Shown here: positions 3,017-27,516 of the stretch, one piece after another
Layout: the number at the start of each line of letters is the position of its first letter
How positions within the stretch are numbered: the first letter of the stretch is position 1
From: an uncultured Clostridium sp.
GTDB taxonomy: Bacteria; Bacillota; Clostridia; TANB77; CAG-508
Direction: 5' to 3'
Assembly (NCBI GenBank): GCA_946496115.1
Contig: CAMMFK010000001.1
Coordinates: 1-47,738, forward strand
DNA: 47,738 bases
Made by a program: the position numbers and the translations under genes
The notes under the pieces: model-generated
Databases searched by the model: none
Told to the model about the DNA's origin: nothing
What the model saw: only the letters and a program-made list of their open reading frames with translations

Positions 3017-3173
3017 TTTATACTTTCCTCTTATATGTTATTTACATATTCTTTCTTTTAGATTTATAAATTTTATCTTTATGTTTATATAATATTAAAA
3101 ATATCCATAAATATTTTATGAATTATATAATAATTTAGTGGTCTTACTATCTTAATTCAATAGTCGCATTATT

Positions 3174-11809: not shown

Positions 11810-12469
11810 TTATTTTCTATTATTGATCCTTCTCTCTGCCTCAGCTGTTGTATCTTCTTTTGTTGTTTCTGAATATATATTTATTTTTATTGATTCTAAT
11901 AAATTTTCATTTTTATAATATTCAATTAATGGTTCTGTATTTTGATGATAAACTTCTAATCTTTGTCTAATTGTTTCTGGTTCATCATCTTTTCTTTTTA
12001 TGAGCTCTGACCCACATCTATCACATATACCTTCTACTTTTGGTGGCATAAATACTGTATTGTATGATGCTCCACATTCTTTGTTTGAACAAATTACTCT
12101 ACTTGATGTTCTTACGACTATGTCTTCATCTGGAACGTCTAAGTTAATTACTGCTGTAATCTTTTTGCCCTTTTCAGCTAAATATTTATCTAAAGCTTCT
12201 GCTTGTGGTATAGTTCTTGGAAAACCATCTAGTAAGACATTTTCAAGCTCATCAAGTTTTCCTTCAACCATTGCTATTGTAATTTCATCTGGTACTAACT
12301 TTCCTTGTGACATATATTCTTCTGCCTTTTTTCCTAGTTCTGTTTGTCTTTTCATTTCATCTCTGAATATATCTCCTGTTGCTAAATGAACTAAATTATA
12401 TTTTTTGCAAATTTCATTTCCTATTGTTCCTTTTCCGCTTCCCGGAGCACCTAACATTATAATATACAT
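11810..12469 (-). CDS. adk: adenylate kinase (zinc-lid type)
   Basis: P-loop GAPGSGKGT, lid Cys pairs CSNKEC...CDRCG. Confidence 0.96.
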   Translation of the reverse strand: MYIIMLGAPGSGKGTIGNEICKKYNLVHLATGDIFRDEMKRQTELGKKAEEYMSQGKLVPDEITIAMVEGKLDELENVLLDGFPRTIPQAEALDKYLAEKGKKITAVINLDVPDEDIVVRTSSRVICSNKECGASYNTVFMPPKVEGICDRCGSELIKRKDDEPETIRQRLEVYHQNTEPLIEYYKNENLLESIKINIYSETTKEDTTAEAERRINNRK

Positions 12470-12487
12470 ATTTTTCTTCCTTTCTTT

Positions 12488-12518
12488 TTTTACGAAAAGG
12501 ACCGTTCCTTTCGTAAAA
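12488..12518 (+). repeat. 31-nt TTTTACG-N17-CGTAAAA unit (copy 2) in the adk leader
   Basis: TTTTACGAAAAGGACCGTTCCTTTCGTAAAA, with one mismatch to the 21-nt core. It is self-complementary (13-bp stem with one bulge). Confidence 0.7.
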
Positions 12519-12540
12519 TCTCGTGTTTTTTGCCGTATAT

Positions 12541-12569
12541 ATTTTAGTACATTTTTTTTTGATTGTCAA
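12541..12569 (-). promoter_or_regulatory. adk-map-infA-rpmJ promoter
   Basis: Minus strand TTGACA (12564-12569), 17-nt spacer, TAAAAT (12541-12546). Confidence 0.65.
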
Positions 12570-12570
12570 T

Positions 12571-12604
12571 AAAAAAAAGAACTTTAGGATTTGCCCCAAA
12601 GTTC
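12571..12604 (-). terminator. rho-independent terminator after secY
   Basis: 10-bp stem GAACUUUGGG/CCUAAAGUUC (one G-U) followed by U8 on the minus strand. Confidence 0.8.
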
Positions 12605-12614
12605 AAATTATAGT

Positions 12615-13937
12615 TTATTCTAAGAAACCTTTGTAATGTCTCATTACTAATTGTGATTGTAATTGTTGACTTAGTTCTATTGCAACACCAACAACAATTA
12701 ATATTGATGTTCCGCCAAATGCTGTATTAAATCCTGTGAATCTTGTTAGCATTGGAAGTATTGCTATTGCTGCTAAGAATAATCCACCAAATAATACTAC
12801 TTTTGATAATACTGATGATAAGTAGTCAGCAGTTGGTTTTCCAGCTCTAATTCCTGGAATGAATCCACCATTTTGTTTTATGTTGTTTGCAACTTCTGCT
12901 GGATTAAATGTTGCATAAGTATAGAAATAAGTAAATCCTACAATTAACAATAAGTATATAATAGCATTTATTATTGTATATTGCCATCCAACACTTGATG
13001 ACGATGTTGCTATTGATAGATTGTATATTACTCTCCAGAAACCTGTTTGAGTTTCTATATCACTTACAAATAATTGTATTATCATTGCTGGGAATGTCAT
13101 AAATGATGAAGCAAATATTATTGGCATAACACTTGCCATTGCTGGCTTAATTGGAATATGTGTATTTTGAGCTCCAACCATTCTTCTTCCAACAACTTTT
13201 TTAGAATATTGTACTGGTATTCTTCTTTCTGCTAATTGTACAAATACTACTCCTGTTATAAGTACAAGTACACCTATTAAAATTCCTATAGCAGTTAAAA
13301 GTCCTGTTGTGCTAAACTGTCCATCTACAATTATTCCACTTGCTACTGCAACAACTGCACTTGGTAATGATGATACTATACCTGCAAATATTAGCATTGA
13401 TATACCATTACCAATACCTTTTGATGTGATTTTATCTCCTAACCACATAAGTAGTGATGTTCCAGCCATTAATGAAACTACTACAATTACTCCTGTTAAA
13501 GCACTTTCATCTACGAATATTCCTGAAGATCTGTATGATAGATATATACCTAATCCTTCTATTAAAGCAAGAATTAATGTGATTATTTTTGTATATCTAT
13601 CAATTTTCTTTCTTCCTTCTTCTCCACCCTCTTTAGTTAATCTTTCTAAAGCAGGTATAATCATTCCTAGTAATTGAATTACTATTGATGCTGTAATGTA
13701 TGGTGTTATAGACATTGCAAATATTGATAATCTTGAGAAAGCACCTCCAGATATCATATTTATCATACCTGTAACACTATTTGAATATGCATCCATTGAA
13801 GATTCTAATGTTACTATATCAACGCCTGGTATTGTTATGTAACAACCTAATCTAAAGATTACTAATAACAATAATGTATATAGTATTTTTTTCCTTATTT
13901 CAGGAGTTTTAAGCGCGTTTTTAATTGTCTTAAGCAA
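12615..13937 (-). CDS. secY: preprotein translocase subunit SecY
   Basis: 440 aa, 10-TM pattern, canonical N-terminus ...PEIRKKILYTLLLLVIFRLG, operon position. Confidence 0.97.
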   Translation of the reverse strand: MLKTIKNALKTPEIRKKILYTLLLLVIFRLGCYITIPGVDIVTLESSMDAYSNSVTGMINMISGGAFSRLSIFAMSITPYITASIVIQLLGMIIPALERLTKEGGEEGRKKIDRYTKIITLILALIEGLGIYLSYRSSGIFVDESALTGVIVVVSLMAGTSLLMWLGDKITSKGIGNGISMLIFAGIVSSLPSAVVAVASGIIVDGQFSTTGLLTAIGILIGVLVLITGVVFVQLAERRIPVQYSKKVVGRRMVGAQNTHIPIKPAMASVMPIIFASSFMTFPAMIIQLFVSDIETQTGFWRVIYNLSIATSSSSVGWQYTIINAIIYLLLIVGFTYFYTYATFNPAEVANNIKQNGGFIPGIRAGKPTADYLSSVLSKVVLFGGLFLAAIAILPMLTRFTGFNTAFGGTSILIVVGVAIELSQQLQSQLVMRHYKGFLE

Positions 13938-13938
13938 G

Positions 13939-14373
13939 CTATATCACCTCTGCCTTTCCGCCTAAAGCTTCGATTTGTTCTTTAGCAGATTTAGTGAATC
14001 TTACAGCTTTGACATTTAATTTTTTGTCAAGTTTTCCAGTTGCTATAACAACTATTCCGTCATTCTCTTTGCTTATTATTTTATCATTTATTAAGCTTTC
14101 AGCTGTAACATCTGTTACTGTAGATTTGTTAAGCATTGTTAATGTTACTTCTGTATAATTTTTAGCAAATTTGTTTGTGAATCCTCTCTTTGGTAATCTT
14201 CTATATAATGGTGTTTGACCACCTTCAAATCCACGTCTAACTCCTCCGCCAGATCTTGCTTTTTGACCTTTATGTCCTCTACCAGATGTTTTTCCAAGGC
14301 CTGAACCCATTCCACGTCCGACTCTTGTTTTTGCTGTTTTTGCTTGTGCTGGTTTTAATTCGTCTAATTTCAT
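13939..14373 (-). CDS. rplO: 50S ribosomal protein L15
   Basis: [24 protein letters not shown] motif. Confidence 0.97.
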
Positions 14374-14476
14374 ATGGATTACACCTCCTTAATTTATTAT
14401 TAAGTTATAAATATTCTTTCATATTATGACTTTGTTTGTCAATACTTAAAAGTGTAGAATTATATAATTGTTTTAA

Positions 14477-14965
14477 TTACATAATGTCTTCTACTTTCTT
14501 TCCTCTTTTTTTAGCTACTTGTTCAATAGTTTGCATGCTCTTTAATCCTTCTATTGTTGCATATACAACATTTCTAGGATTGTTTGTTCCTAGAACTTTA
14601 GTTCTAACATCTCTGTATCCTGCAAGTTCTAGTACTGGTCTTACACTACCTCCAGTAATAAGTCCTGTACCTTCTGTAGCTGGTTTAAGCATTACGCTTG
14701 CACTACCGAATTTTCCTATATATTCATGAGGTACTGTTGTTCCTACTATTGGAACTTCTACTAAATTTTTCTTAGCATCTTCGATTGCTTTTTTGATAGC
14801 ATCTGGAACTTCAGCAGCTTTTCCATTTCCTACACCTACTTTTCCTTTTCCATCTCCAACAACAACTACTGCGCTAAATCTGAAAGTTCTACCACCTTTT
14901 ACAACTTTAGCAACTCTGCTGATGGCTACAACTTTTTCTTTTAATTCAGTTTCGTTTTCTTGCAC
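14477..14965 (-). CDS. rpsE: 30S ribosomal protein S5
   Basis: [24 protein letters not shown] motif. Confidence 0.97.
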
Positions 14966-14983
14966 TTGATTTTCCTCCTTCTC

Positions 14984-15343
14984 TTAAAAATTTAATCCGC
15001 CTTGTCTTGCACTTTCAGCTAATTCTTTTACAACTCCATGATACCTATATCCACTTCTATCAAATACAACGTCAACTATTTTCTTGTCTTTTGCTCTTTT
15101 TGCTATTAGAGCTCCAACTTCTTTAGCTGCTTCTTTATTTGCGTGTTTTGTTTTTACTTCTTTGTCCATTGTTGAAGCACTTACTAAAGTATTTCCATTA
15201 ACGTCATCTATAATTTGAGCATAGATATTTGTATTACTTCTGTACATACAAAGTCTTGGGCATTCAGGTGTTCCACTGATTTTTCTACGAACTCTTATAT
15301 GTCTTCTATCTCTTTCAAATTTTCTATCTGTTTTAGAAATCAT
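14984..15343 (-). CDS. rplR: 50S ribosomal protein L18
   Basis: [12 protein letters not shown]...[17 protein letters not shown]-terminal GLNF. Confidence 0.97.
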
Positions 15344-15382
15344 TGATTTTCTCCTTTCTTATATTTTTTAAGTTGTTAGATT

Positions 15383-15916
15383 TTATTTTTTACCAGTCTT
15401 ACCTTCCTTACGTCTAATATGTTCTTCCACATATTTGATACCTTTTCCTCTATAAACTTCTGGTGGTCTCTTGCTTCTTACAACAGCAGCTGTTTGACCA
15501 ACTAGTTCTTTGTCTACACCTCTAACAATTATAGAGTTTGCACTTGGTACATCAAATGTAATTCCTTCTGGTGCTACCATCTCTACTGGATGTGAGTAAC
15601 CTAAATTCATTACTAATTTTGTTCCTTGTTTTTGTGCTCTGTAACCTACACCATTGATTTCAAGTGCTCTTGTAAATTCTTTTGTTACACCTTCAATCAT
15701 GTTGCTTATTAATGTTCTTGTTAGTCCGTGTAAGTTTCCATATTCTTCTGATGGAATTTCTACTTTTACTTCTTTGTCTTCTACTTTTACAGTAACGTTG
15801 CTGTTTAAGTCTCTTTCTAATGTTCCTTTTGGTCCTTTTACAGAAATGTGACTTCCATTAACTGTTACTTCAACACCATCAGGTATTGCTATAGGTTTCT
15901 TTCCTATTCTTGACAT
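15383..15916 (-). CDS. rplF: 50S ribosomal protein L6
   Basis: MSRIGKKPIAIPDGVEV N-terminus, 177 aa. Confidence 0.97.
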   Translation of the reverse strand: MSRIGKKPIAIPDGVEVTVNGSHISVKGPKGTLERDLNSNVTVKVEDKEVKVEIPSEEYGNLHGLTRTLISNMIEGVTKEFTRALEINGVGYRAQKQGTKLVMNLGYSHPVEMVAPEGITFDVPSANSIIVRGVDKELVGQTAAVVRSKRPPEVYRGKGIKYVEEHIRRKEGKTGKK

Positions 15917-16365
15917 TTGGATTTTCCTCCTTCTTTTAATTTTTTTGATTTTTTATTTATGAGTGTATATAAAATAATGTTTAGTATTGTCGGTATTATA
16001 TTAAGTATTATCAACGCTAGAATATTGCCTTCTTCTGAAAAGCCTCCTGCCATATTCCTTACTGCCAAATAAAACTTAAACGTGATAACTAGAAGTATTG
16101 CTATTAAAATCATATAGACAAAATATTTAATTTTTGTACTCTTGTCTTTAATCTTTATATTTTTAATAATCGATTTTACTATAATTACTATATTAGTTAA
16201 CACTAAAGCTATTTCTAAGACATATCTTATCCAAACTATAACTGGTATATTTTGATTTGATACATCCGATACTGGTGGTACAGGTAATGAACTTGCCATT
16301 ACTTGACTTGATAGTATGATTGCTATAACTAGTATAAAGCTAATCTTCTTCACTATTTTTTTCAT
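15904..16365 (-). CDS. signal-peptide plus 3-TM membrane protein, paralogue B, embedded in the spc operon
   Basis: MKKIVKKISFILVIAIILSSQVMAS leader, three hydrophobic segments, AGGAG SD. It overlaps the rplF start by 13 nt and resembles the upstream ORF. Confidence 0.7.
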   Translation of the reverse strand: MKKIVKKISFILVIAIILSSQVMASSLPVPPVSDVSNQNIPVIVWIRYVLEIALVLTNIVIIVKSIIKNIKIKDKSTKIKYFVYMILIAILLVITFKFYLAVRNMAGGFSEEGNILALIILNIIPTILNIILYTLINKKSKKLKEGGKSKCQE

Positions 16366-16822
16366 CAGCTATTCTCCTATTTATCTTATCTCTTTTATTT
16401 ATTCGTATTAATAAGATAATATTTAATATTATTGAAACTATCAACATTGTTATTCCTGTTATGATAAAAGGAGTATAGTTAATAGGTTTTACTCCTATTC
16501 CTTCGGCATAACCATTCGTTAGCTGCAAAATACTTACTGATGATAAGCCTAATAACATTATTAAGAATGCTAATATAAAATATTTAATCTTATTATTTAT
16601 TTTCGAAATAATAATTTTAATTACATTAATTATAAAGAATAGTATGCTAATTATAACTGCTCCAATTTCCATCAAATATATAATCATACGTGTATAATCC
16701 ACCACTTCTGGTACTGTCTGTGAAAGATTTGGTATTGGTGGCTGACTTGCTATTACTCCTGTTGACGAAAATAATAATATTATTATCAATACTACACTAA
16801 GTTTTTTTACTAATTTTTTCAT
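16340..16822 (-). CDS. signal-peptide plus 3-TM membrane protein, paralogue A, embedded in the spc operon
   Basis: MKKLVKKLSVVLIIILLFSSTGVIAS leader. It starts 27 nt after the rpsH stop and shares KIKYF and ILNIIL motifs with paralogue B. Confidence 0.7.
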   Translation of the reverse strand: MKKLVKKLSVVLIIILLFSSTGVIASQPPIPNLSQTVPEVVDYTRMIIYLMEIGAVIISILFFIINVIKIIISKINNKIKYFILAFLIMLLGLSSVSILQLTNGYAEGIGVKPINYTPFIITGITMLIVSIILNIILLIRINKRDKINRRIADEKNSEED

Positions 16823-16849
16823 TATTTTATCCCACTTTTAATTTACCTA

Positions 16850-17248
16850 TTACCAAACATAAGCTAAAACTTCTCCACCTAAGCCTTCTTTTCTAGCTTC
16901 TTTATCTGTTTTTATTCCTTTAGATGTTGAAATTAATGCTATACCTAAACCATTTAATACTTGTGGTAATTCATCTTTGTTAACATATATTCTTAAACCT
17001 GGTTTACTAATTCTTTTTAAACCATCTATTACTCTTTTTCCGTTTTCATCGTATTTTAGAGTAATTCTTAACATACCTTGTTTTTCATCTTTTATTTCTT
17101 CAAAAGATGCTATATATCCTTCATCAACTAAGATTTGAGCTATAGCTCTTTTCATATTTGATGCTGGAACGTCAACTTCCTTATGCTTAGCACTATTTGC
17201 ATTTCTTATTCTTGTTAGCATATCTGCTATTGGGTCTGTTGTATTCAA
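16850..17248 (-). CDS. rpsH: 30S ribosomal protein S8 (TTG start)
   Basis: (M)[26 protein letters not shown] upstream of TTG. Confidence 0.96.
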
Positions 17249-17431
17249 TTCTTTTCCCTCCTTTTTTAATTTTTATTAAAATGCTTTTATTTGCTTTATT
17301 GTTTAAACTTATTTAAATTAGTATATTGCAAGGAAAGCAAGTAAAAAATTTTGAAATTATATTATTATATATTGAAAAATTTTTTACGCCGCTTGACGAA
17401 GCAAGATGCTGATTAAAATAAGTTTATGTGA

Positions 17432-17617
17432 TTACCAACTTGCCTTCTTAACACCAGGAATTTCACCCTTATGTGCTAATTCTCTAAAGCATATACGGCA
17501 AATTCCATATTTTCTTATATAAGCATGTGGTCTTCCACAAATTTTGCATCTATTGTATTCTCTTGTCTTATATTTTTGTGGTCTTGCTTGTTTTACTTTT
17601 AAAGATTTTTTAGCCAT
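17432..17617 (-). CDS. rpsZ: 30S ribosomal protein S14, type Z (zinc-binding)
   Basis: 61 aa, CKICGRP...CRIC zinc ribbon, ends KKASW. Confidence 0.97.
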
Positions 17618-17645
17618 TTGCTTTTAATTTCCTCCTTCAATAAAT

Positions 17646-18185
17646 TTATTTCTTGAATGGCATTCCAAGAAGAGTTAATAATTCTTTTGCCTCTTCATCT
17701 GTCTTAGCAGTTGTAACAAATATTATGTCCATGCCTCTAACTTTATCTACTTTATCGTATTCGATTTCTGGGAATATTAATTGTTCTTTAATACCCATTG
17801 AGTAGTTTCCTCTTCCATCAAATGAATCGCTTGATACTCCTCTAAAATCTCTAACTCTAGGAAGTGCTACATTGAATAGTTTGAATGCAAAATCATACAT
17901 TTTTCCTTTTCTTAATGTAACTTTAACTCCTACATTTACACCAGCTCTTAGTTTGAAAGCTGCTATTGATTTTTTAGATTTTGTTATAACTGGTTTTTGA
18001 CCTGTTATTGCCATAATATCTCTTACAGCTCCGTCTAATGATTTAGGGTCTTCTTTTGTATCGCCTAAACCTATATTTAAAACTATTTTTTCTAATCTTG
18101 GAACTTCCATAACTGATTTATAGTTAAATTTTTTCATCATTGCTGGAATAATTTCTTTCTCATATTGTTCTCTTAAAATTTCCAT
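17646..18185 (-). CDS. rplE: 50S ribosomal protein L5
   Basis: Canonical L5 sequence ([14 protein letters not shown]), 179 aa. Confidence 0.97.
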
Positions 18186-18212
18186 AAGTCTTAAATAGAC
18201 CTCCTTTCCCTA

Positions 18213-18530
18213 CTATTTAACTTTTTTTAATTCTGCTCCGCAAGATTTGCATACACGTACTTTGCCACTTTCTGTTACTTTGTAACCTACTCTAACTGCT
18301 TTTCCGCATTTTGGGCATACTATTGCAACATTACTTGAATTGATAGGATGTTCTGATGCAATAATTCCACCTTCTTCTCCTGCTTTTCTTGGCTTTGTTG
18401 CTCTTTTTCTTATATTAACGTCTTTTACAACGATTTTATTTTTCTTAGGAATTACTTCAAGTATTTCTCCAGTTTTTCCTTTATCGTTTCCAGATAATAC
18501 TTTTACATTATCTCCTTTTCTTAATTTCAT
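18213..18530 (-). CDS. rplX: 50S ribosomal protein L24 (with CxxC...CxxC ribbon)
   Basis: MKLRKGDNVKVLSGNDKGK KOW motif. The ATG at 18530 follows AGAGGTGA. The track start at 18539 is a GTG. Confidence 0.95.
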   Translation of the reverse strand: MKLRKGDNVKVLSGNDKGKTGEILEVIPKKNKIVVKDVNIRKRATKPRKAGEEGGIIASEHPINSSNVAIVCPKCGKAVRVGYKVTESGKVRVCKSCGAELKKVK

Positions 18531-18548
18531 GTATTTCACCTCTTTCTA

Positions 18549-18917
18549 TTATAAAACTTCTGGTGCTAGAGATAATATTTTCATGTAATCATTATCTCTT
18601 AATTCTCTTGCAACAGGTCCAAATATACGTGTTCCTCTTGGTGTTTTGTCATCTTTTATTATAACTGCTGCGTTTTCATCAAATCTTACCATTGTTCCAT
18701 CTGCTCTTCTAATTGGTTTCTTTGTTCTAACAACAACTGCTTTAACAACTTCACCTTTTTTTACAACGCCACCTGGTGTTGCGCTTTTAACAGAAGCAAC
18801 TACTACATCACCAACTGATGCATATTTTCTATATGAACCACCTAGAGCTCTTATAACCATTATTTCTTTTGCTCCAGTGTTATCAGCTACTTTTAGTATA
18901 CTTTGTTGTTGTACCAT
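18549..18917 (-). CDS. rplN: 50S ribosomal protein L14
   Basis: [19 protein letters not shown]-terminus, 122 aa. Confidence 0.97.
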
Positions 18918-19010
18918 AGCTTGATTTCCTCCTTCTTACTTATTTTCAAACTTTTATTACATTATGCAACTATTGTTTGAAGTTGTTTTACTTTGTAAAA
19001 AAGTTTTGGC

Positions 19011-19274
19011 TTATTTTATTACTGCCTTTTCAGTTATTTCAACAACTCTCCATCTTTTATCTTTAGATAAAGGTCTTGTTTCCATAACTCTAACTGTATC
19101 TCCAACTTGGCATTTATTTTCTTCGTCATGAGCTTTTAATTTGTATGTTGATTTTTTGATTTTTCCGTATGTCTTATCCATTTTTCTTGTTTCAACAGCT
19201 ACAACTACTGTTTTATCCATTTTGTCAGATACAACTTTTCCAACCATTGTTTTACGAAGATTTCTCTCTACCAT
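19011..19274 (-). CDS. rpsQ: 30S ribosomal protein S17
   Basis: [14 protein letters not shown]...[13 protein letters not shown]. Confidence 0.97.
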
Positions 19275-19291
19275 TATGGTATCTCCTTTCT

Positions 19292-19495
19292 TTATTTTTT
19301 ACTTTCTTCTAACTTTCTTTCTGTTAGAATTGTATTTATTCTTGCAATGTCTTTCTTTACTTCCTTGATTTTCATAGGATTATCTAATCCGTTTGTAGCT
19401 AAACTAAATCTTAATTTGAATAATTCAGTCTTTAGTTCGCTTAATTCTTTTTCTAAATCAGGTGAAGACATTTCTCTTATTTTACTAATCTTCAT
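19292..19495 (-). CDS. rpmC: 50S ribosomal protein L29
   Basis: [18 protein letters not shown]... The ATG at 19495 follows GGTGGTGA and overlaps the end of rplP by 11 nt. Confidence 0.93.
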
Positions 19496-19925
19496 CTTTA
19501 TCACCACCTATTTCAGTTTCTTTTTTAACAAATTTAGCTTTAACAGATAGTTTGTTTCCAGCAAGACGTAATGCTTCTCTTGCAACATCTTCTGAAACTC
19601 CTCCCATTTCAAACATTATTCTTCCTGGTTTAACAGGTGCTACCCAATATTCAACATTACCTTTTCCTTTACCCATACGAGTTCCGATAGGTTTGCTTGT
19701 TATTGGTTTGTCTGGGAATATCTTAATCCAAACTTTTCCACCTCTTTTAATATATCTTGTCATAGCAACACGGGCTGCTTCTATTTGATTTGAGGTGATT
19801 AATCCTAATTCTAATGCTTGTAAACCATATTCTCCATCTGTTACTTTATTTCCTCTAGTAGCTTTTCCTCTAATTCTACCTTTTTGCATTTTTCTATATT
19901 TAGTCTTTTTTGGCATCAATGGCAT
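19485..19925 (-). CDS. rplP: 50S ribosomal protein L16
   Basis: [12 protein letters not shown] start after GGAGGAG. The track N-extension was rejected. It overlaps the rpsC 3' end by 26 nt. Confidence 0.95.
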
Positions 19926-20586
19926 GATTATCTCCTCCTTCCGCTTTATTCTTTTTTGCTGGAAGAACTTCTCCTTTATATATCCAAACTTTAACACCAA
20001 CTTTTCCATATGTTGTATTTGCTTCTGCAAATCCATAGTCTATGTCTGCTCTTAAAGTTTGAAGAGGAACTGTTCCTTCTTTATAGAATTCAGTTCTAGC
20101 CATGTCTGCTCCACCTAATCTTCCAGATACTGAAGTTTTTATACCTAAAGCACCTGCTTTCATAGCTTTTTGCATACATTGTTTCATAGCACGTCTGAAT
20201 GAAATTCTTCTTTCTAATTGTCCAGCGATGTTTTCTGCTACTAATTGAGCATTTGTATCAACATCTTTTACTTCGACAATATTTAAATTTACTTGTTTAT
20301 TAATCATTTTTTCAAGTTCTGATTTTAAACTTTCAGCTAAGTTTCCACCTTTACCAATTACTAGACCTGGTTTTGCTGTGTAAACATTAACTTTAACAAA
20401 TTTTGGTGTTCTTTCAATTTCTATTTTTGAAATTCCACTAACATATAACTTTTTCTTAACATATTCACGGATTTTGTGGTCTTCAACTAGATAGTCGCTG
20501 TAATGTTTTTTATCTGCATACCATTTTGAGCTCCAATCATTGATAACACCAACTCTGTATCCACGTGGGTCTACTTTTTGTCCCAT
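19900..20586 (-). CDS. rpsC: 30S ribosomal protein S3
   Basis: [15 protein letters not shown]-terminus, KH domain, 228 aa. Confidence 0.97.
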
Positions 20587-20610
20587 TTGTCTATGCCTCC
20601 TTCTTTATTT

Positions 20611-21225
20611 TTATACACGTTCTTTTAATACTATTGTAGTATTACTTGTTCTTTTTCTAATTCTAACAGCTGAACCTTTTGCTGCTGGTCTTATTCTCTT
20701 TAATGTAGGACCTTGGTTTGAGTATATTTCAGCTATATATAATTTTGAATGATTCATTTGGTTATTGTTTTCAGCATTTGCTATTGCTGATTTTAATAAT
20801 TTTTCTAGTACTTCTGCTCCTGCTTTTGGTGTGAATTTTAATATTGCTAATGCTTCATCAACATTTTTTCCTCTAATTAAGTTTGCAACAATAGCAATTT
20901 TTCTGCTAGAAATTCTTGCATATTTAACTGTAGCTTTTGCTACTAATTCTTCAGTTTCAGATTCTTTTTGAACTTTAACTGCTTTTTTTGCATTTTCTGT
21001 TTTCTTTTCAGCTGTTTTTGTTTCTGTTTTAGCTGTTTCTTTATTTTCTGCTACTTTTGTTTCTGCTTTCTTTGTTGCAGCTTTTGCAGTTTTAGCTTCA
21101 GCTACTTTCTTTTCAGCTGTTTTACTTTCTGTTTTATTTGAAGATTTTGTTTCAGCTTTTGCTGTTTTTGTTTCTTCTGATTTTTTAGAAGCAGTTGTTA
21201 CTTTCTTTTCTTTCTCGTCTGCCAC
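20611..21225 (-). CDS. rplV: 50S ribosomal protein L22 with a ~90-aa Lys/Ala/Glu/Thr-rich N-terminal extension
   Basis: The C-terminal ~110 aa are canonical uL22 (ATVKYARISSRKIAIVANLIRGK...). The N-terminus is repetitive (TKTAEKK-like). Confidence 0.93.
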   Translation of the reverse strand: MADEKEKKVTTASKKSEETKTAKAETKSSNKTESKTAEKKVAEAKTAKAATKKAETKVAENKETAKTETKTAEKKTENAKKAVKVQKESETEELVAKATVKYARISSRKIAIVANLIRGKNVDEALAILKFTPKAGAEVLEKLLKSAIANAENNNQMNHSKLYIAEIYSNQGPTLKRIRPAAKGSAVRIRKRTSNTTIVLKERV

Positions 21226-21305
21226 TGTAAATTACCTCCTTTTTTGTAATTTTGAAATTTTATTTTTGTAATACCTTATTTTCTTGTTCTTGATATTACT
21301 AATTA

Positions 21306-21587
21306 TTATTGATTTGTAGTTGTTGTTTTGTCTCCTGAATGTCCTTTGAATGTTCTTGTAGGAGCAAACTCACCTAATTTATGTCCAATCATTTCTTCTG
21401 TAATGTAAACTGGAACATGTTTTCTTCCGTCATGAACAGCTATTGTGTGTCCAACCATTTGTGGGTATATTGTTGAAGCTCTTGACCATGTTTTTAAAAC
21501 TTCTTTGTTTCCACTTTCGTTCATAGCTTCAATTCTTTTTAATAATTCTGGTGCTACATATGGTTTTTTCTTGCTTGATCTTGACAT
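21306..21587 (-). CDS. rpsS: 30S ribosomal protein S19
   Basis: [35 protein letters not shown]. Confidence 0.97.
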
Positions 21588-21614
21588 TTTATTCTCCTTT
21601 CTACTAACTTCTTA

Positions 21615-22442
21615 TTATTTTCTTCTCTTTGTAATTAATCTATTAGATTTTTTGTGTTTTGCTCTTGTCTTATATCCAAGTGCTGGTTTACCCCAAGGAG
21701 TCATTGGTCCAGCGTGACCAACTGGTGCTCTACCTTCACCACCACCATGTGGGTGATCTACTGGGTTCATTACAGAACCTCTAACTGTAGGACGTACTCC
21801 TAAATGTCTTGTTTTACCAGCTTTACCTAATTTTATGTTTTCGTGTTCTTCGTTTCCTATAACACCGATTGTTGCTTTGCAACAAGCTAAAACTAGTCTC
21901 ATTTCTCCTGATGGTAATCTTAAATGAGCATATTTGCCTTCTTTAGCCATTAATTGAGCTGATTGTCCAGCTGCTCTAACTAATTTACCACCTTGATTTG
22001 GATTGATTTCTACATTATGAACTAATGTACCAACTGGTATGTTTTCTAATTTTAAGCAGTTACCTGGTTTGATGTCTGCTGTATCACTTGATACAACTTT
22101 ATCTCCATCTTTTAATCCTTTTGGAGCTAATATATAGCTTAATGTTCCATCTGTATATTTGATTAAAGCTATATTTGCACTTCTGTTTGGATCGTATTCG
22201 ATTCCAATAACTTCTGCTTCCATATCTAATTTATTTCTTTTGAAATCAATTTTTCTGTATTTTTGTCTGTTTCCGCCACCTTGATGTCTAACTGTGATTT
22301 TTCCTTGTGCATTTCTTCCTGCTTTTGATTTCTTTACTTCTAGTAAAGATTTTTCAGGAGTCTTTTTTGTTATTTCAGAAAAATCTGATACAGCCATTCC
22401 TCTAAGTGATGGAGTAACTGGTCTAAATTTCTTTGTTCCCAT
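21615..22442 (-). CDS. rplB: 50S ribosomal protein L2
   Basis: 275 aa, [16 protein letters not shown] motif. Confidence 0.97.
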
Positions 22443-22717
22443 TTTATTATTCTCCTTTTTATTTTAAGATTAAGCTATCTAAATATGATTGCTTATCTTT
22501 CTATTAGTAGATTTTTTCCTGCTCTACTTAGCAGATATTTTTTATTATCCGAGTTCTTTCTCGATACTTTTCTTTACCGTTGTAATTATAAGCTACGTCT
22601 TACGTCGTTAAACCTCACTTAAAATTCCTCAAAGTATCAAAAATACATTTCCGGATTTTAAGTTCGGTTTGCTTAAGTCAAACTTGCTTCTAATTTCAAC
22701 TAATGTTTTGCATTCTC

Positions 22718-23065
22718 TTAAGCTCCTGCAAATTCATCAATTGAATCTCTGAATTTCTTATTAATTTTTCTTACTTCCCCACCTTTAGCAATGTAAGATA
22801 AATCCTCTGGATTTGTATCTATTGTAACAATTGCTTTTTTCCAGTCAGAAGTTTTGCCTACGCTTCTTCCAACTCTTTTTTCTTTTCCTTTTACTGTCAT
22901 TGTATTAACTTTTAATACTTTAACTTCAAATAATTTTTCTACTGCTCTTGCAATATCTACCTTTGTAGCATTTTTATTAACTTTAAAGGTATACTTACCA
23001 AGATTTATTTGGTCATTGCTCTTTTCTGTAACAACTGGAGCAATTATAACATCTTCTGGTCTCAT
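22718..23065 (-). CDS. rplW: 50S ribosomal protein L23 (C-terminally extended)
   Basis: [11 protein letters not shown]...[26 protein letters not shown]. It is 115 aa, about 20 aa longer than usual at the C-terminus. Confidence 0.94.
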
Positions 23066-23688
23066 TATGCGTACACCTCCTCTAATTTTTTAACAGTGTC
23101 CTCTGTTACTACTAAGCCCTTGTATTTTACTAAATCATAAGCATTGATTGTGTCAACTGTTAATGTTTTTACACCTTCAATATTTCTTGATGATTTGCAT
23201 ACATTTTCATTATTTGCTGGTAATAATATTAATGTTTTTCCTTCTGCTTTAACATTGTTTAATACTTTTACCATGTTAGCTGTTTTGATTTCTTTTAATT
23301 CTAATTTATCTAAAACAATTAATTCTTTTTCTGCAACTTTTGAACTTAGTATTGATTTGATTGCTAATCTCTTTTCTTTCTTATTAATTTTGTAAGAATA
23401 TGAACGAGGTCTTGGTCCTAATGCTATACCACCTTTAATCCATTGTGGAGCTCTTATTGACCCTTGTCTTGCACGACCTGTTCCTTTTTGTCTCCATGGT
23501 TTTCTTCCACCACCAGAAACTTCTGCTCTAGTTTTTGTATTTTGAGTTCCTTGTCTTTGATTTGCTAAGTAATTAACTATTGCACCATGAACTATGTTTT
23601 CATTTGGTTCTATACCAAATACATTTTCATTAAGTTCTAGTTCTTTAACTTTCTTTCCTTCTATGCTTAATACGTCTACTTTAGGCAT
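23065..23688 (-). CDS. rplD: 50S ribosomal protein L4
   Basis: [20 protein letters not shown] motif, 207 aa. Confidence 0.97.
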
Positions 23689-23704
23689 TTTACTTCCTCC
23701 TTCC

Positions 23705-24334
23705 TTATGCTTTTACGCTTGATTTTACTTTTAATATTGCACCTTTAGTTCCAGGAACGCTTCCTTTTACTAAAATTACATTTTTGTCTAAATCAACTTT
23801 TACAACTTCTAAATTTTGAATTGTAACTGTTTCTACCCCCATATGTCCTGGTAAGTTTTTACCTGGAAATACTCTACCTGGTGTAGATGTTGGTCCCATT
23901 GAACCTGGTCTTCTATGATACATAGAACCATGTCCCATTGGTCCTCTTGATTGTCCATGACGTTTGATAACACCTTGGAAACCTTTACCTTTAGAAGTTC
24001 CTTGAACGTCAACTTTGTCACCTACTGCAAATACGTCTGCTTTAAGTTCATCGCCAACTTTCATTCCTTCTACTGAATCTAATCTAAATTCTCTTAAATA
24101 TTTTTTTGGAGCTAATTTGTTTTTGCTTAAATGTCCTAGCTCAGGTTTGTTAAGCTTTCTTTCTTTAACTTCTCCAAATCCTAATTGAACAGCTGTGTAT
24201 CCATCTTGTTCTACAGTTTTGATTTGTGTAACTGTACATGGTCCAACTTCTATTGCTGTTACTGGAATAACTTTTCCTTCTTCATCGAAGATTTGTGTCA
24301 TTCCAACTTTTCTTCCTATTAATGCTTTTTTCAT
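23705..24334 (-). CDS. rplC: 50S ribosomal protein L3
   Basis: [15 protein letters not shown]-terminus, 209 aa. Confidence 0.97.
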
Positions 24335-24418
24335 ATTTCCCTCCTATTGGCTGACAGTTTGTTTTGTGCTATTTGAAGTTTGCATTTTTCTTTCTTATGC
24401 ACACGCCAGCATAGCTAA

Positions 24419-24775
24419 TTATAATTTGATTTCTATATCTACACCAGCTGGTAAGTCTATTTTCATAAGACTGTCAACTGTTTTTTGTGTTGGATAAAGA
24501 ATATCAATAACTCTTTTATGAGTTCTTAATTCAAATTGTTCTCTTGAATCTTTGTCTTTGTGTGGAGAACGAATAACTGTTACAACTTCCTTTTCTGTTG
24601 GAAGTGGAATAGGTCCTGAAACTTTTGCTCCTGTTTTCTTAGCAGTATCTACTATTTTCTCAGCAGACTGTTCTAAAACAACATGATCATAAGCTTTAAG
24701 TCTTATTCTGATCTTCTCGCTTTTTGCAGCACTTGTTTTTGTAACTGTTTCTTTTGAATTTTTCTTTGTTGCCAT
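24419..24775 (-). CDS. rpsJ: 30S ribosomal protein S10 (16-aa N-terminal extension)
   Basis: [11 protein letters not shown]...core is canonical. It is preceded by [20 protein letters not shown]. Confidence 0.95.
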
Positions 24776-24845
24776 ATTTTTACCTCCTTAAAACGTTATT
24801 TTAGTCGGAAGTTATAAACGCACCCTTGTGTTTCTTTTAGATTTA

Positions 24846-24890
24846 ACATAAAATCCCAAGTTTGCATGATAATCTTGGGATAAGTGCTAT
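24846..24890 (-). terminator. terminator-like attenuator hairpin inside the S10-operon leader
   Basis: UCCCAAG-N23-CUUGGGA followed by UUUU on the minus strand, about 70 nt upstream of the rpsJ ATG. Confidence 0.5.
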
Positions 24891-25014
24891 AAAATTTATA
24901 CTTACCGCCTTGGTCTTAGCCAATGACATACTCCATAGAAGTTCCCTCCATCGCCCACTCGCTGTAGGTGTGTAGCCACATTCTACTTCAACGCATCTCT
25001 TTACATGCTTTTTT

Positions 25015-25043
25015 ATTATATAATAAATGTAGGCTAAAGTCAA
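25015..25043 (-). promoter_or_regulatory. S10-operon promoter
   Basis: Minus strand TTGACT (25038-25043), 17-nt spacer, TATAAT (25015-25020). Confidence 0.65.
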
Positions 25044-25079
25044 GGGTTTTGGAGAACTTTACTTCAATTTTATTTGTAT

Positions 25080-25204
25080 TCACATTATTCTCTTTTCTGC
25101 CAAATTTTCTAACATTTCTATATATCTAGTTTTATCTACATAATAATAATTATCTTCTACTAGCTCCTCATAATTACTTATTCCATAAGGCAATTTTTTA
25201 TCAT
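25080..25204 (-). pseudogene. 5' remnant of an AAA-ATPase-like/PD-(D/E)XK (PF09820-type) gene, frameshifted and truncated
   Basis: Hand translation gives KKLPYGISNYEELVEDNYYYVDKTRYIEMLENLAEKRIM*. This is the characteristic N-terminus of that family. It is out of frame with the ATG/SD (GAGGGGA...ATG at 25204) by one A in an A-run and stops after about 40 codons. Confidence 0.5.
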
Positions 25205-25282
25205 ATTTTTTTATCCCCTCTTTTAAGAGTTTTATCAATAAAATTTGTATATTATCATAAATAGATTTTTTTTAACAATAGT

Positions 25283-27253
25283 TCAACGAAAACAGTGAAA
25301 AAAAGAGGAAGTTTTACCTTCCTCCTCCACCACCACCGGCCTCCGCCGCCGACCGCCTCCTCCGGAGAAGCCACCGCCTCCACCAGATCCTGACGAGAAT
25401 GATGATGACATTGCATTACTTACTGATCTAAAACTACTTGAAAAGTCCATATGTGACATTATAAATATTGTTGGATATATATTGTAATCATAGTTATCAA
25501 AGTCAGGGTATACAATTTTTAATTCTTTTATTACTTTTTCTGATATACCAAATGCAGTAGCATATACCAAGTATTTTTCCCATATTGCTAAGTCCGGTAC
25601 ATCTTTTTCTTTAAGAAGTGAAAAGTCTTCCATATACTTTTTAAATGCTTTCCACTTGTCTTGTTCATCTACACCTTCTTGAGTGTATACACTTATTCTG
25701 TTATTTGCTCTATTTATTAAAATAAAGTCAACTATAAGCCATATTAATGCTATAACTAACAAATACCATGGAATTCCTATGCTGTTTACTGTATTTGTAA
25801 CAAAGTCCATATTATCTAGTAAAAATACTAAAACAAATGGTATAAATACACCTATAGAACAGCCTGCCATGTTGGCGTTTCTTCTTTTAATTCCTTTTAA
25901 ATCTAGTATTCTATTTGATGTTAGTTTTGATTTAATTGCTTTATCTATTGCACTCTTTAATGATACAACTTTTGAGCTATTATTGCTTATATATTTTTTT
26001 AGCTCTTTCATTGTAATTTCATTTGGATTATCTGTTTCTTTACTTCCACCAAATATTGATTTAGATTTATTTTTGCAAGCTGTAATTAAAAAGTTTAATA
26101 TTATTATTTCATCACTATTTAAGCTAACATTATTTGCATCTTGAGGTAAAATAGTAATTTTGCTATCTTTTTTACCTCCATCCGGTATTTCTTCTATTTT
26201 TATTATTTTTTTCAAAGATAGATCTAAAATTGTTGATGAAAATACTTTTCCTATATCATATTGTGTAAATCCTTGATATTTACCATCCAAAATATACAAA
26301 GCTTCTGCTGGTGAGCAAGTCTCACGTGGTAAATCTCTAAAATAGTCAAAATGTGTAGTTGGAACTACAGGCTTTACTTTTAATAGTATTCTTATGTTTT
26401 TCACCATAAAATATAGTAAAATTCCAAATATAATTAAACAAACAATAGCACTAATAATAATCTTAAATATTCTTGAGCTATTTGCTTCATTTGCCCATTC
26501 GTTTTCTTCTTGAAGAATATAGTTTAGCCTATTTGCATTATAAGTTCTTCCTGAATAAGTAATTAAGTCATTAGGCATAGCAATTCTTACTTCTACCATT
26601 TTTTGTGCTTTGTTATTGTTTACCTCAAATGTTACTGTGTCATTACTTGCCTTTGTAATTGTTCCATTTAAATCAGGAGTATGTCCCCAAATTCTTAGGT
26701 CATCTAGATTTGTCACTTCAGCCGGTAATTTTATAGTACCTGTAATTTTTTTGGCGGGTATTTCAAAGTCTGAGCCCAAAAACTGCCAATACATTTCTGC
26801 ACAATCATTATAAACTGCTATGGCATCTTCTACATGATAACTAATTTTGTAAGTTTCAGTTCCAGAAGAATTTTCATATCCTGTGCCCCATGCCACTTCG
26901 TAGTTTGACCCCATACTTATGAAATAATACTCATCTGTTGGTACATGGTAAGCATAGTCTCCATAGTCATCCATTGGAATCTCTACACCACTACTTGTTA
27001 TTCTACTTACAGATCCATCTGTTATGCTTGTATACTTAGTTGAATCTCTTTTGAATGTTTTAAACAAAGTGTTTGTGTCGCTTATATCAATATTCCATGT
27101 TTCTACAACATCCATAGAACCATCACTATTAATTTGTACATCAAAGTTTAAACTATTCAAATATAAATCTGAACTTGCTTGCACACTATTAAATATTGAT
27201 AAAGCTCCAAGTAAAAATACAATTAAAATAATTGCTCGTTTTAAAATTTTCAT
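25283..27253 (-). CDS. DUF2207-like membrane protein
   Basis: Signal/TM N-terminus, large extracytoplasmic domain, central and C-terminal TM segments, Gly-rich C-terminal tail (SGSGGGGGFSGGGG). The family was assigned from memory of this architecture. Confidence 0.6.
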   Translation of the reverse strand: MKILKRAIILIVFLLGALSIFNSVQASSDLYLNSLNFDVQINSDGSMDVVETWNIDISDTNTLFKTFKRDSTKYTSITDGSVSRITSSGVEIPMDDYGDYAYHVPTDEYYFISMGSNYEVAWGTGYENSSGTETYKISYHVEDAIAVYNDCAEMYWQFLGSDFEIPAKKITGTIKLPAEVTNLDDLRIWGHTPDLNGTITKASNDTVTFEVNNNKAQKMVEVRIAMPNDLITYSGRTYNANRLNYILQEENEWANEANSSRIFKIIISAIVCLIIFGILLYFMVKNIRILLKVKPVVPTTHFDYFRDLPRETCSPAEALYILDGKYQGFTQYDIGKVFSSTILDLSLKKIIKIEEIPDGGKKDSKITILPQDANNVSLNSDEIIILNFLITACKNKSKSIFGGSKETDNPNEITMKELKKYISNNSSKVVSLKSAIDKAIKSKLTSNRILDLKGIKRRNANMAGCSIGVFIPFVLVFLLDNMDFVTNTVNSIGIPWYLLVIALIWLIVDFILINRANNRISVYTQEGVDEQDKWKAFKKYMEDFSLLKEKDVPDLAIWEKYLVYATAFGISEKVIKELKIVYPDFDNYDYNIYPTIFIMSHMDFSSSFRSVSNAMSSSFSSGSGGGGGFSGGGGRRRRPVVVEEEGKTSSFFHCFR

Positions 27254-27456
27254 ACTTTCCCCTTTGCATTTTGCCTTTATGCAATTGCTAATAATTATTT
27301 TTGAAATCTATGTTAACTTTTTAATTCTGCTTTTTTCTTAATAATTTTTTGCTTAAGCAAAATGCTTTTTAATATTATTATTTTATTCTCACAATTATAT
27401 TACACTATTTTTATTTTTTTGTCTATTGCAAAATGAAAATTTTATTTTTTAGAAAA

Positions 27457-27485
27457 TTGTATTTTCTCCGTTTTTATTGTATAAT
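27457..27485 (+). promoter_or_regulatory. candidate mutS2 promoter
   Basis: TTGTAT (27457-27462), 17-nt spacer, TATAAT (27480-27485). Confidence 0.45.
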
Positions 27486-27516
27486 ACCTAATATACAAGC
27501 GAAAGGATCAATTACA

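Follow-up and report, generated by a model that had tools for sequence, protein, structure and literature searches.

The gene order S14-S8-L6-L18-S5 is often treated as near-immutable, and a 47.7-kb metagenome-assembled contig from an uncultured Clostridium sp. (CAMMFK010000001.1; "the window" below means this whole stretch, whose minus strand carries a standard S10-spc-alpha block) raises the question of what two additional open reading frames (ORFs) are doing within it. These, ORF A and ORF B, occupy the whole gap between rpsH and rplF in the spc operon of ribosomal protein (r-protein) genes. Our answer, which we hold with a probability of roughly 55%, is that they belong to a lineage-restricted orphan family of small membrane proteins encoded by a variable accessory cassette of zero to three genes, which is shuffled by recombination and hitch-hikes in the operon; for the role that we propose for this cassette our confidence is lower than for this descriptive core. 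The spc spacer of one gut lineage would then tolerate and reshape an accessory cassette.

A cassette of variable copy number between rpsH and rplF

Using L6 as bait we fetched 80 related GTDB species representatives, all of them uncultured gut 'Clostridia' (the distant ones include Ca. Merdicola, Clostridium sp. CAG:575 and closed 1.5-Mb genomes), and located both rpsH and rplF in 79; the cassette was absent in 73 of the 79, with rpsH-rplF gaps of 17–231 nt, mostly 17–110 nt, and no ORF in the gaps inspected. In every fetched contig that was long enough to show a neighbour the cassette lay between rpsH and rplF. Its copy number varied: one gene was found in loci L006–L009 and L011, two in the window, L001–L003 and L090–L095, and three in L004 and L005. 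Each of L013 and L015 (L6 84–85% identical) had one very divergent cassette gene, whose ATG overlaps the rpsH stop (MYGNKK...), whose 3' end overlaps rplF, and whose GASIPPIPS segment recalls the IASQPPIPN of ORF A. The flanks are well conserved in close relatives (98–99.5% nucleotide identity for rpsH and 97–99% for rplF), and the spacer preceding ORF A in the window, together with the first 16 ORF A codons, is 93–95% identical in the single-copy loci L006 and L011. L010 matches the window with 98.6–100% nucleotide identity in the ten adjacent genes that were compared, secY among them (rpsN, at 94.6%, excepted), and has an empty 48-nt rpsH-rplF spacer; L012 (L6 89% identical) is also without the cassette. 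As a near-identical relative has an empty site, the cassette is dispensable.

The window comes from a metagenome-assembled contig, which would allow for an assembly or binning artefact, i.e., a chimeric join at 15916 or 16850. However, a survey of the junction, which a preliminary description of this stretch had suggested, identified orthologues between rpsH and rplF, in arrays of one to three cassette genes, in 15 or more independent assemblies made from different samples and projects, including contigs of 75–365 kb and one long-read-style contig (L094), and the frames overlap rpsH and rplF seamlessly; we give an artefact next to no weight.

Irregular alleles were seen in two of these loci. 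At the start of the single cassette gene of L011 (2545..2575) there is one extra A in the ATGAAAAAA run relative to the intact allele P0036, which shifts the frame after 8 codons, and an in-frame TTG could rescue translation; this could be a homopolymer assembly error, a pseudogene, or slipped-strand on/off switching. In L094 the A-type cassette gene (2673..3026) encodes 117 residues without a signal peptide, starting at the Met of the first transmembrane segment (TM1), and rpsN (1882..2022) was called at just 46 residues; these may be truncated alleles or homopolymer errors.

Direct reading of the sequence bore out the anatomy given in the preliminary description, i.e., the ORF coordinates, the spacer after rpsH, the AGGAG 8 nt upstream of the ORF B ATG, and the overlaps at both ends of ORF B (Table 1). 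Its view that the two genes are tandem paralogues was likewise upheld, both by a full-length BlastP match between ORF A and ORF B (31% identity, 3e-9) and by a 49-nt direct repeat, whose copies are 73% identical, are spaced by 442 nt, and cover the region coding for 'ILNIIL...INK' in the third transmembrane segment; this repeat is evidently the DNA-level trace of the tandem duplication that gave A and B. The only Shine-Dalgarno-like sequence upstream of ORF A is GTGGGA, a weak one at 8 nt from the ATG. The ORF A C-terminus, DEKNSEED, is encoded by the stretch that in another frame gives the ORF B N-terminus, MKKIVKKIS, and an A/B overlap of identical length is also found in L001, L004, L090 and L092. 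At the other end ORF B overlaps the rplF start by 13 nt (15904..15916), such that its last codons (KEGGKSKCQE and the stop) are encoded by the Shine-Dalgarno region and start codon of rplF. The ORF B tail has been borrowed from the native rplF leader, because the spacer of the empty-site relative L010 ends in ...AAAAGAAGGAGGAAAATCCAAATG, i.e., the bases of the ORF B tail region; window positions 15941..15816 are 100% identical to L010.

The start of secY lies about 2 kb downstream of the cassette. As the preliminary description had noted, promoters and terminators were not evident: the minus strand of 15000..18000 had no terminator-like sites, and promoter-like matches were about as frequent as in shuffled sequence (17 observed versus 16.6 expected). 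An Rfam scan of 12000..28000 gave no match, thus no known r-protein leader or riboswitch accounts for the spacers. The insertion/deletion unit that separates the window from L010 is not bounded by terminal inverted repeats or by any clear target-site duplication, and with local blastn neither a second cassette copy nor its source DNA turned up in the window or the fetched loci. A short A/T-rich likeness at both junctions (AAATTAAAAG-like) was judged to be uninterpretable in 25% G+C DNA.

Table 1. Features of the rpsH-rplF region, in window coordinates.
Feature	Position	Strand	Basis
rpsH (ribosomal protein S8), upstream flank	16850..17248	-	ORF listing; Pfam Ribosomal_S8 on L001 and L006 orthologues
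Spacer from rpsH stop to ORF A ATG, 27 nt	16823..16849	-	Direct sequence reading
ORF A, 160 residues, 'A-type' cassette gene	16340..16822	-	ORF listing
Predicted Sec signal peptide of ORF A, residues 1–25	16748..16822	-	Alignment, charge counts, AlphaFold2 helix 2–21
AGGAG Shine-Dalgarno of ORF B, within ORF A coding sequence	16374..16378	-	Direct sequence reading
Overlap of ORF A 3' end and ORF B 5' end, 26 nt	16340..16365	-	
ORF B, 153 residues, 'B-type' cassette gene	15904..16365	-	ORF listing
rplF ribosome-binding region (GGAGG 15926..15930, ATG 15914..15916)	15904..15930	-	Direct sequence reading
Insertion/deletion unit, 895 nt, in window but not in empty-site relative L010	15942..16836	-	
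49-nt direct repeat, copy one	15951..15999	-	Repeat family D1; other copy 16393..16441
rplF (ribosomal protein L6), downstream flank	15383..15916	-	ORF listing

Coding potential, predicted topology and divergence

The cassette stretch is 25.5% G+C and contains an open run of 160 codons, its longest. When it was shuffled 2000 times with dinucleotides preserved, the longest run had a mean of 48 and a maximum of 118 codons, with none of the 2000 reaching 150, and the remaining five frames of the stretch contain 21–41 stops. The orthologues hold the frame open down to 49–52% identity, at synonymous divergence (dS) above 0.5. Length, frame conservation and an uneven ratio of nonsynonymous to synonymous divergence (dN/dS, below) together indicate that ORF A and ORF B are genuine protein-coding genes.

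The two proteins open with MKK(L/I)VKK(L/I)S, after which come a hydrophobic core and VIA (ORF A) or VMA (ORF B) before a Ser, and they have the motifs KIKYF and ILNIIL in common. Kyte-Doolittle hydropathy resolves each into a signal-peptide core and three more hydrophobic segments, and charge counts and AlphaFold2 models agree with this prediction, which was also that of the preliminary description. ORF A is predicted to consist of a signal peptide (residues 1–25) with the n-region MKKLVKKL (+4), a hydrophobic core and cleavage between V-I-A and S, an outside Pro-rich segment (26–40), TM1 (~41–70), a Lys-rich cytoplasmic loop (71–80), TM2 (81–102), an outside loop (103–118), TM3 (119–141) and a charged cytoplasmic tail; the predicted layout of ORF B is a signal peptide (1–24, ending in VMA), TM1 (44–70), the loop KIKDKSTKIKY, TM2 (82–104), TM3 (116–137) and a Lys-rich tail. 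In both proteins the Pro-rich segment after the signal peptide is disordered and without Lys or Arg. The predicted charges (+3 to +5 in the TM1-TM2 loop, 0–1 positive in the TM2-TM3 loop, and +6 to +7 in the C-terminal tail) fit the positive-inside rule for a three-helix protein with the N-terminus out and the C-terminus in, which would be exported by Sec and cut by signal peptidase I. This topology is a prediction from hydropathy, charge counts and two AlphaFold2 models. The models place helices at residues 2–21, 39–72, 78–107 and 117–159 of ORF A, with 22–36 disordered (mean predicted local distance difference test score, pLDDT, 75), and at 2–22, 42–70, 75–104 and 111–148 of ORF B (pLDDT 75.8). 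The conserved motifs of the family are the V-x-(A/G) cleavage motif, which in our alignment is retained at -3/-1 in all members, the most divergent included, the Lys-rich loop K..K.KY, and ILNIIL..INK.

Our comparisons of the cassette with its flanks, for which dN and dS were estimated by the Nei-Gojobori method, revealed that the cassette alleles are ~10-fold more diverged than the flanks at synonymous sites. Between the window and L006/L011, rpsH and rplF had dS of 0.04–0.07 versus 0.77–0.86 for the cassette gene (dN 0.35), while SecY and Adk were 97.8% and 97.1% identical at the nucleotide level between the window and L006; between the window and L001 the flanks had dS of 0.14–0.21 versus 0.51 for ORF A (dN 0.33) and 0.66 for ORF B (dN 0.15). 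The proteins encoded by different alleles differ by up to 50% beside flanks that are 97–99% identical. Moreover, the relationships of the cassettes disagree with those of their flanks: L092 has flanks more diverged from those of the window (dS 0.10–0.14) and a nearly identical ORF B (dS 0.036), whereas the flanks of L090 are near-identical (dS 0.04) and its ORF B is diverged (dS 0.35). This allele of L090 (P0034) is 96% identical to that of the window in its N-terminal half; its C-terminal half is 58% identical to the window ORF B versus 72% to the single-copy alleles P0036 and P0037. P0034 is, on this pattern of identities, an intragenic mosaic, which indicates that the alleles are reshuffled by homologous recombination, also within genes. 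The single-copy genes are themselves hybrid, with the first 16 codons ORF A-like (93–95% nucleotide identity) and the remainder ORF B-like (~77%), and P0038 has an A-type body and a B-type tail; these hybrids suggest that the array ends are set by position and the interior is exchanged.

Whole-gene dN/dS ranged from 0.25 to 0.75. When partitioned by predicted topology, as the preliminary description had proposed that orthologues be compared for dN/dS, the values were not uniformly neutral, ranging from 0.05 to 1.7 (Table 2), and argue for purifying selection on the predicted cytoplasmic and transmembrane parts, with the outward-facing segments evolving at or above the neutral rate.

Table 2. 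dN/dS of the cassette genes by predicted part of the protein (few codons per part).
Predicted part	ORF A	ORF B
Outside N-terminal segment	1.57	0.96
TM1	0.43	0.41
Cytoplasmic loop	0.56	0.14
TM2	0.24	0.54
Outside loop	1.70	0.44
TM3	0.71	0.49
Cytoplasmic tail, part free of ORF B overlap	0.05	n/a (4 codons only)

An orphan family and a pilin-like lead

A word-seeded search of 5.8 billion proteins identified 11 clusters of homologues to ORF A (49–99% identical) and 26 to ORF B (51–100% identical), all derived from metagenomes or metagenome-assembled genomes (MAGs) and none with a name or Pfam domain. When 1.84 billion cluster representatives were searched exhaustively with a hidden Markov model (HMM) profile of the family, only 8 matched at E ≤ 1e-3, thus the family is very narrow. 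No match above threshold was found for ORF A or ORF B in Pfam (hmmscan), NCBIfam, PHROGs (none below E 0.08) or PADLOC (none at all), in agreement with the preliminary description, which recognized no family. A sequence profile search of the PDB gave nothing below E 0.29; Foldseek searches with the AlphaFold2 models of A and B identified only generic three-helix bundles in the PDB (the best being DgkA, E 0.56) and a best match of E 0.19 among viral structures (BFVD). There was no tblastn match in 50,697 phage and 72,556 plasmid records, and a Joint Genome Institute (JGI) metagenome scan found no relatives. A scan of genome contigs with the family alignment also found nothing, though L011, L013 and L015 carry the cassette there; as this method is pattern-seeded its negative result is not evidence of absence. 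The sole match to a curated model below E 1e-3 was that of ORF A residues 66–159 to NCBIfam NF045996, the MAG0920 family of mycoplasma membrane proteins (5e-5, 22.8 bits versus a cutoff of 43), to which ORF B had no match; we rejected membership in this family, as the match is sub-cutoff and limited to the Ile/Leu/Lys-rich transmembrane region, and we attribute it to composition. The protein family is new to curated databases, and our literature searches identified no description of genes between rpsH and rplF.

These searches bear on the possibility that the cassette is the cargo or remnant of a mobile element or prophage, encoding, e.g., a holin or a protein for superinfection exclusion or bacteriocin immunity. 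The presence/absence polymorphism would suit such an origin, as would a G+C content below that of the adjoining genes, and in overall form a small, variable membrane protein whose C-terminal tail is charged is reminiscent of holins and immunity proteins. However, holins are not known to have cleavable signal peptides, neither the PHROGs, PADLOC, phage and plasmid searches nor the viral Foldseek search gave a significant match, and the locus has no integrase, endolysin or bacteriocin partner genes in addition to having no terminal inverted repeats or target duplication; among the loci fetched, the cassette family was not seen outside the rpsH-rplF junction. We consider such an origin very unlikely. 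A mobile element as such was rejected (no terminal inverted repeats, target duplication, recombinase, plasmid match, or source DNA in the window or fetched loci), as was a phage holin, superinfection-exclusion or defence identity (no family or record match, and only r-protein genes as neighbours). The suggestion of the preliminary description that this might be a domesticated insertion was the closer of its two proposals; no clear match to a known mobile-element cargo family and no mobile-element hallmarks were found.

The one link to a characterized class of proteins came from the weakest significant match of the exhaustive profile search, P0040 (1e-4, library-wide). The P0040 family comprises ~105 clusters, and the majority have precomputed matches to PF18895 (T4SS_pilin; T4SS, type IV secretion system) and/or PF04956 (TrbC). 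In hhalign comparisons the probability of a relationship climbed with profile depth from 78% to 90% to 95%, the last for the cassette family against 55 T4SS_pilin/TrbC-like proteins (3.7e-8 over 112 columns); controls in which one profile was reversed, or its columns were shuffled in 15-column blocks, gave probabilities of at most 15% and scores of at most 26. The start of ORF A also has 79% nucleotide similarity over 61 nt to the start of a pilin-like gene in L096. Architecture agrees in part: like VirB2/TrbC-type proteins (120–160 residues), the cassette proteins have a Lys-rich N-terminus, a long Sec signal peptide ending V-x-A (V-x-A/G in the cassette), a variable linker, and two hydrophobic helices (TM1 and TM2) with a short Lys-rich loop (K..K.KY) between them. 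The habit of these genes is shared as well, i.e., tandem paralogues of low mutual identity in variable arrays at a very highly expressed chromosomal site; in Patescibacteria, variable tandem VirB2-like arrays with a mean identity of 25% are found at highly expressed sites (bioRxiv 10.1101/2025.01.22.634366).

Several results weigh against this link. When the signal peptides were trimmed, the hhalign probability for the mature parts fell to 22–38%, with a score of ~25 versus 8–14 for controls, such that a generic signal peptide supplies about half of the score; due to this we downgraded the match to a lead. The match stops short of TM3 and the tail, which are extra and atypical: the cassette proteins have a third helix and a charged cytoplasmic tail that would place the C-terminus inside, unlike VirB2. 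PF04956 and PF18895 were not listed for ORF A or ORF B even at E ≤ 10, members of the cassette family scored at most 13 bits against a pilin HMM that we built, a scan of the window with pilin profiles gave no further match, and Foldseek found no pilin. Finally, the cassette lies inside an r-protein operon and not beside virB4, and no T4SS genes (VirB4, VirB3, VirB6) were found near it at any locus or anywhere in the window, although some pilin-like arrays (L096, L098) are likewise without a nearby ATPase. Descent of the cassette proteins from VirB2-like secreted proteins is, on these sequence comparisons, a doubtful lead and not a family membership. A more specific version, in which they are diverged VirB2/TrbC pilin-like subunits with a third helix that serve a T4SS or surface apparatus encoded elsewhere, with the spc operon providing high constitutive expression, draws on the same similarities and meets the same objections, and we regard it as unlikely.

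The pilin-like arrays themselves were found in gut-metagenome, Firmicutes-like chromosomal contigs, as tandem arrays of 3–4 small T4SS_pilin/TrbC-like genes in L096 (255..1559), L097 (211..1476), L098 (7247..8799) and L099 (8001..10147). The arrays of L096–L098 adjoin a MurD-like ligase gene, with no T4SS ATPase nearby, and the L098 contig also has sporulation genes; that of L099 is directly upstream of TraC/VirB4-like ATPases, near a parAB-gidAB origin region.

Expression, possible role and known systems

We propose that the cassette, having no promoter or terminator of its own, relies for its transcription on read-through within the highly expressed spc operon, and that translation of each gene is coupled to that of the gene next to it, as suggested by the ORF A stop lying 26 nt inside ORF B and the stop of the last gene 13 nt inside rplF. 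The 3' end of this last gene runs across the rplF Shine-Dalgarno, and in some relatives the ATG of the first gene overlaps the rpsH stop. A shared mRNA and probable coupling had already been proposed in the preliminary description, and the anatomy (overlaps, no terminator) fits both, though only as something we infer. The products would be exported by Sec and cut after V-x-A to give N-out/C-in three-helix membrane proteins, of which only a 15–20-residue N-terminal segment and a 10–17-residue loop would be exposed. The near-invariant rpsH and rplF genes may act as homology arms, by way of which alleles, deletions and duplications would pass between strains. Based on the relaxed or diversifying selection on the outward-facing segments, we speculate that the proteins are non-essential envelope components with a role in strain-specific interactions, such as with phage, bacteriocins or other cells on contact. 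The cassette may descend from VirB2/T4SS-pilin-like secreted membrane proteins. The fullest form of this proposal, i.e., that a VirB2/pilin-derived or possibly de novo-born family was captured in the spc operon, is expressed at r-protein levels and is a diversifying surface-interaction locus, is distinctly unlikely to hold in all its parts.

The preliminary description had also suggested a lineage-specific ribosome- or translocon-associated factor, which might be co-expressed stoichiometrically with the ribosome or SecYEG, or might tether the spc-secY mRNA to the membrane. The location in the spc operon shortly upstream of secY would suit such a factor, as would the overlaps with neighbouring genes and the absence of an internal terminator, and a signal peptide and transmembrane segments could draw translating ribosomes to the membrane. 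However, the cassette is missing in L010 despite neighbours, secY among them, that are 98.6–100% identical, and in 73 of the 79 related species representatives; it occurs in 0–3 copies, and among close relatives its alleles are mosaic and its proteins diverge by up to 50%, in contrast to the near-invariance of the proposed partners; its codon adaptation is also low. We therefore consider it a dispensable accessory locus, and a ribosome or SecYEG partner highly improbable.

A different explanation is that the peptides are functionless by-products: AT-rich DNA landed, or grew de novo, in the spacer and was kept translatable so that ribosomes reach rplF, thereby avoiding polarity or mRNA decay, and the peptides may be degraded. 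That the family is an orphan and the cassette dispensable, as L010 shows, is in keeping with this, as is the pinning of the array ends by the rpsH and rplF overlaps while the middle varies freely; in addition, 25% G+C favours Ile/Leu/Lys/Asn codons, and operon spacers in this lineage take other insertions, e.g., the palindromic element described below. The lowest codon adaptation in the window and a whole-gene dN/dS of ~1 in distant pairs also fit. On the other hand, constraint tracks the predicted topology (0.24 in TM2, 0.14 in the cytoplasmic loop and 0.05 in the tail versus 1–1.7 outside), and the V-x-A/G motif, the positive-inside pattern and ILNIIL..INK persist through 50–80% sequence divergence. 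Moreover, rplF has its own strong GGAGG and works without a cassette in L010, thus coupling is not required for rplF, and deleting the insert, as in L010, would be easier than holding 300 codons open. We regard functionless peptides as unlikely, if a serious contender.

The reading that we prefer, of a family of genuine membrane proteins encoded by an accessory cassette, has to be set against several other points. AT-rich DNA yields Ile/Leu/Lys/Asn-rich, transmembrane-like ORFs by default. When compared with the r-protein genes of the window, ORF A and ORF B had codon adaptation values of 0.52–0.53, the lowest among the 22 window genes examined (the 20 others ranged from 0.61 to 0.85, with SecY at 0.76), which is odd within the most highly expressed operon and would also suit poorly translated or very young ORFs; the weak Shine-Dalgarno of ORF A is a further point of this kind. 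Whole-gene dN/dS nears 1 in the most distant comparisons, and the partitioned dN/dS values come from few codons, non-independent pairs and uncertain loop alignments. The difference between L010 and the window may be a gain or a loss. Transcription, translation, export and cleavage are all predicted from sequence, and the ecological role is a proposal.

The operon has further unusual features in this lineage. A palindromic intergenic element of ~105–130 nt (17284..17414, minus strand), which lies in the 183-nt rpsN-rpsH spacer, folds as a long hairpin (-29 kcal/mol, z = -5.6); it is present in a single copy in the window and has no Rfam match. Copies that are 76–90% identical lie in differing spc spacers of relatives, i.e., rpsN-rpsH in L011, L006 and L094, rpsH-rplF in L016 and L018, and rplF-rplR in L090, L094, L013, L070 and L047, which shows that spc spacers accept insertions in this lineage. 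Compensatory changes were seen in 9 of 31 predicted pairs. It could be an element like a miniature inverted-repeat transposable element (MITE) or a structured intra-operon RNA. Window rpsN (17432..17617, minus strand) is 93.5–94.6% identical to that of every close relative versus 97–100% for neighbouring genes; this patch of divergence adjoins the palindromic element and may be a recombination tract. Spacers also differ in length by 100–200 nt between near-identical relatives at S17-L14, L6-L18 and S14-S8 (variable spacers lie at 853..982 and 4495..4651 of L090, 3984..4155 of L094, and 2073..2274 of L002); the palindromic element explains this polymorphism in part, and it appears to be general in the S10/spc block of the clade. 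The rpsE-rplO gap (14374..14476) is only 103 nt in the window, thus rpmD (L30) is missing from its usual place in spc, as it is in L006 and L090. Lastly, rplV (L22; 20611..21225, minus strand) has 204 codons from a GTG start, is called at 185 residues in relatives, and encodes a low-complexity N-terminal extension of ~90 residues (Lys, Ala, Glu and Thr, with KTAEKK-type repeats) before the normal L22 domain.

The significance of the cassette is moderate, its hosts being uncultured. It would nonetheless be a natural example of accessory genes that draw their expression from a highly expressed, essential operon and spread by means of its conserved genes as homology arms, and it shows the pace at which a small membrane protein can diversify next to genes that hardly vary; it may also illuminate the origin and maintenance of pilin-like or de novo membrane proteins. 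From a practical point of view, cassettes of this kind interrupt an r-protein marker block on which phylogenomics and the typing of MAG strains rely, and might themselves be used as strain markers. If this is indeed a surface-interaction locus, it would have a parallel in the pilin arrays of epibiotic Patescibacteria, which are essential and highly expressed.

The phenomenon has precedents in kind, among them pilin-like arrays at highly expressed loci and variable cassettes between conserved genes. Brandis analysed in detail four insertions into the conserved translation-gene cluster, three of them between operons, and all consisting of ordinary metabolic genes (PMC8046335). Those insertions share with the cassette that they place non-ribosomal genes in this cluster and are not kept in all descendants; the cassette differs in lying within the spc operon, between adjacent r-protein genes that it overlaps, in encoding an orphan family, and in its polymorphism between genomes that are near-identical. 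A further parallel is with loci that lie between core genes and vary among strains ('flexible islets' or replacement cassettes, e.g., surface or immunity loci), which are exchanged by homologous recombination. With these the cassette has in common conserved flanks around a hyper-diverged centre, polymorphism in presence and copy number, mosaic alleles, and discord between cassette and flanks, whereas it is tiny (0.45–1.4 kb), has no mobility or partner genes, and lies inside an essential operon. De novo membrane-protein genes have reportedly arisen from AT/T-rich non-coding DNA, and here the likeness is in orphan status, extreme AT-richness, a tendency to form transmembrane segments, low codon adaptation, and a short non-coding spacer in relatives; in contrast, we found no ancestral non-coding homologue of the cassette, its empty site being 48 nt and not 900, and the weak pilin-like similarity points instead to divergence from an existing family.

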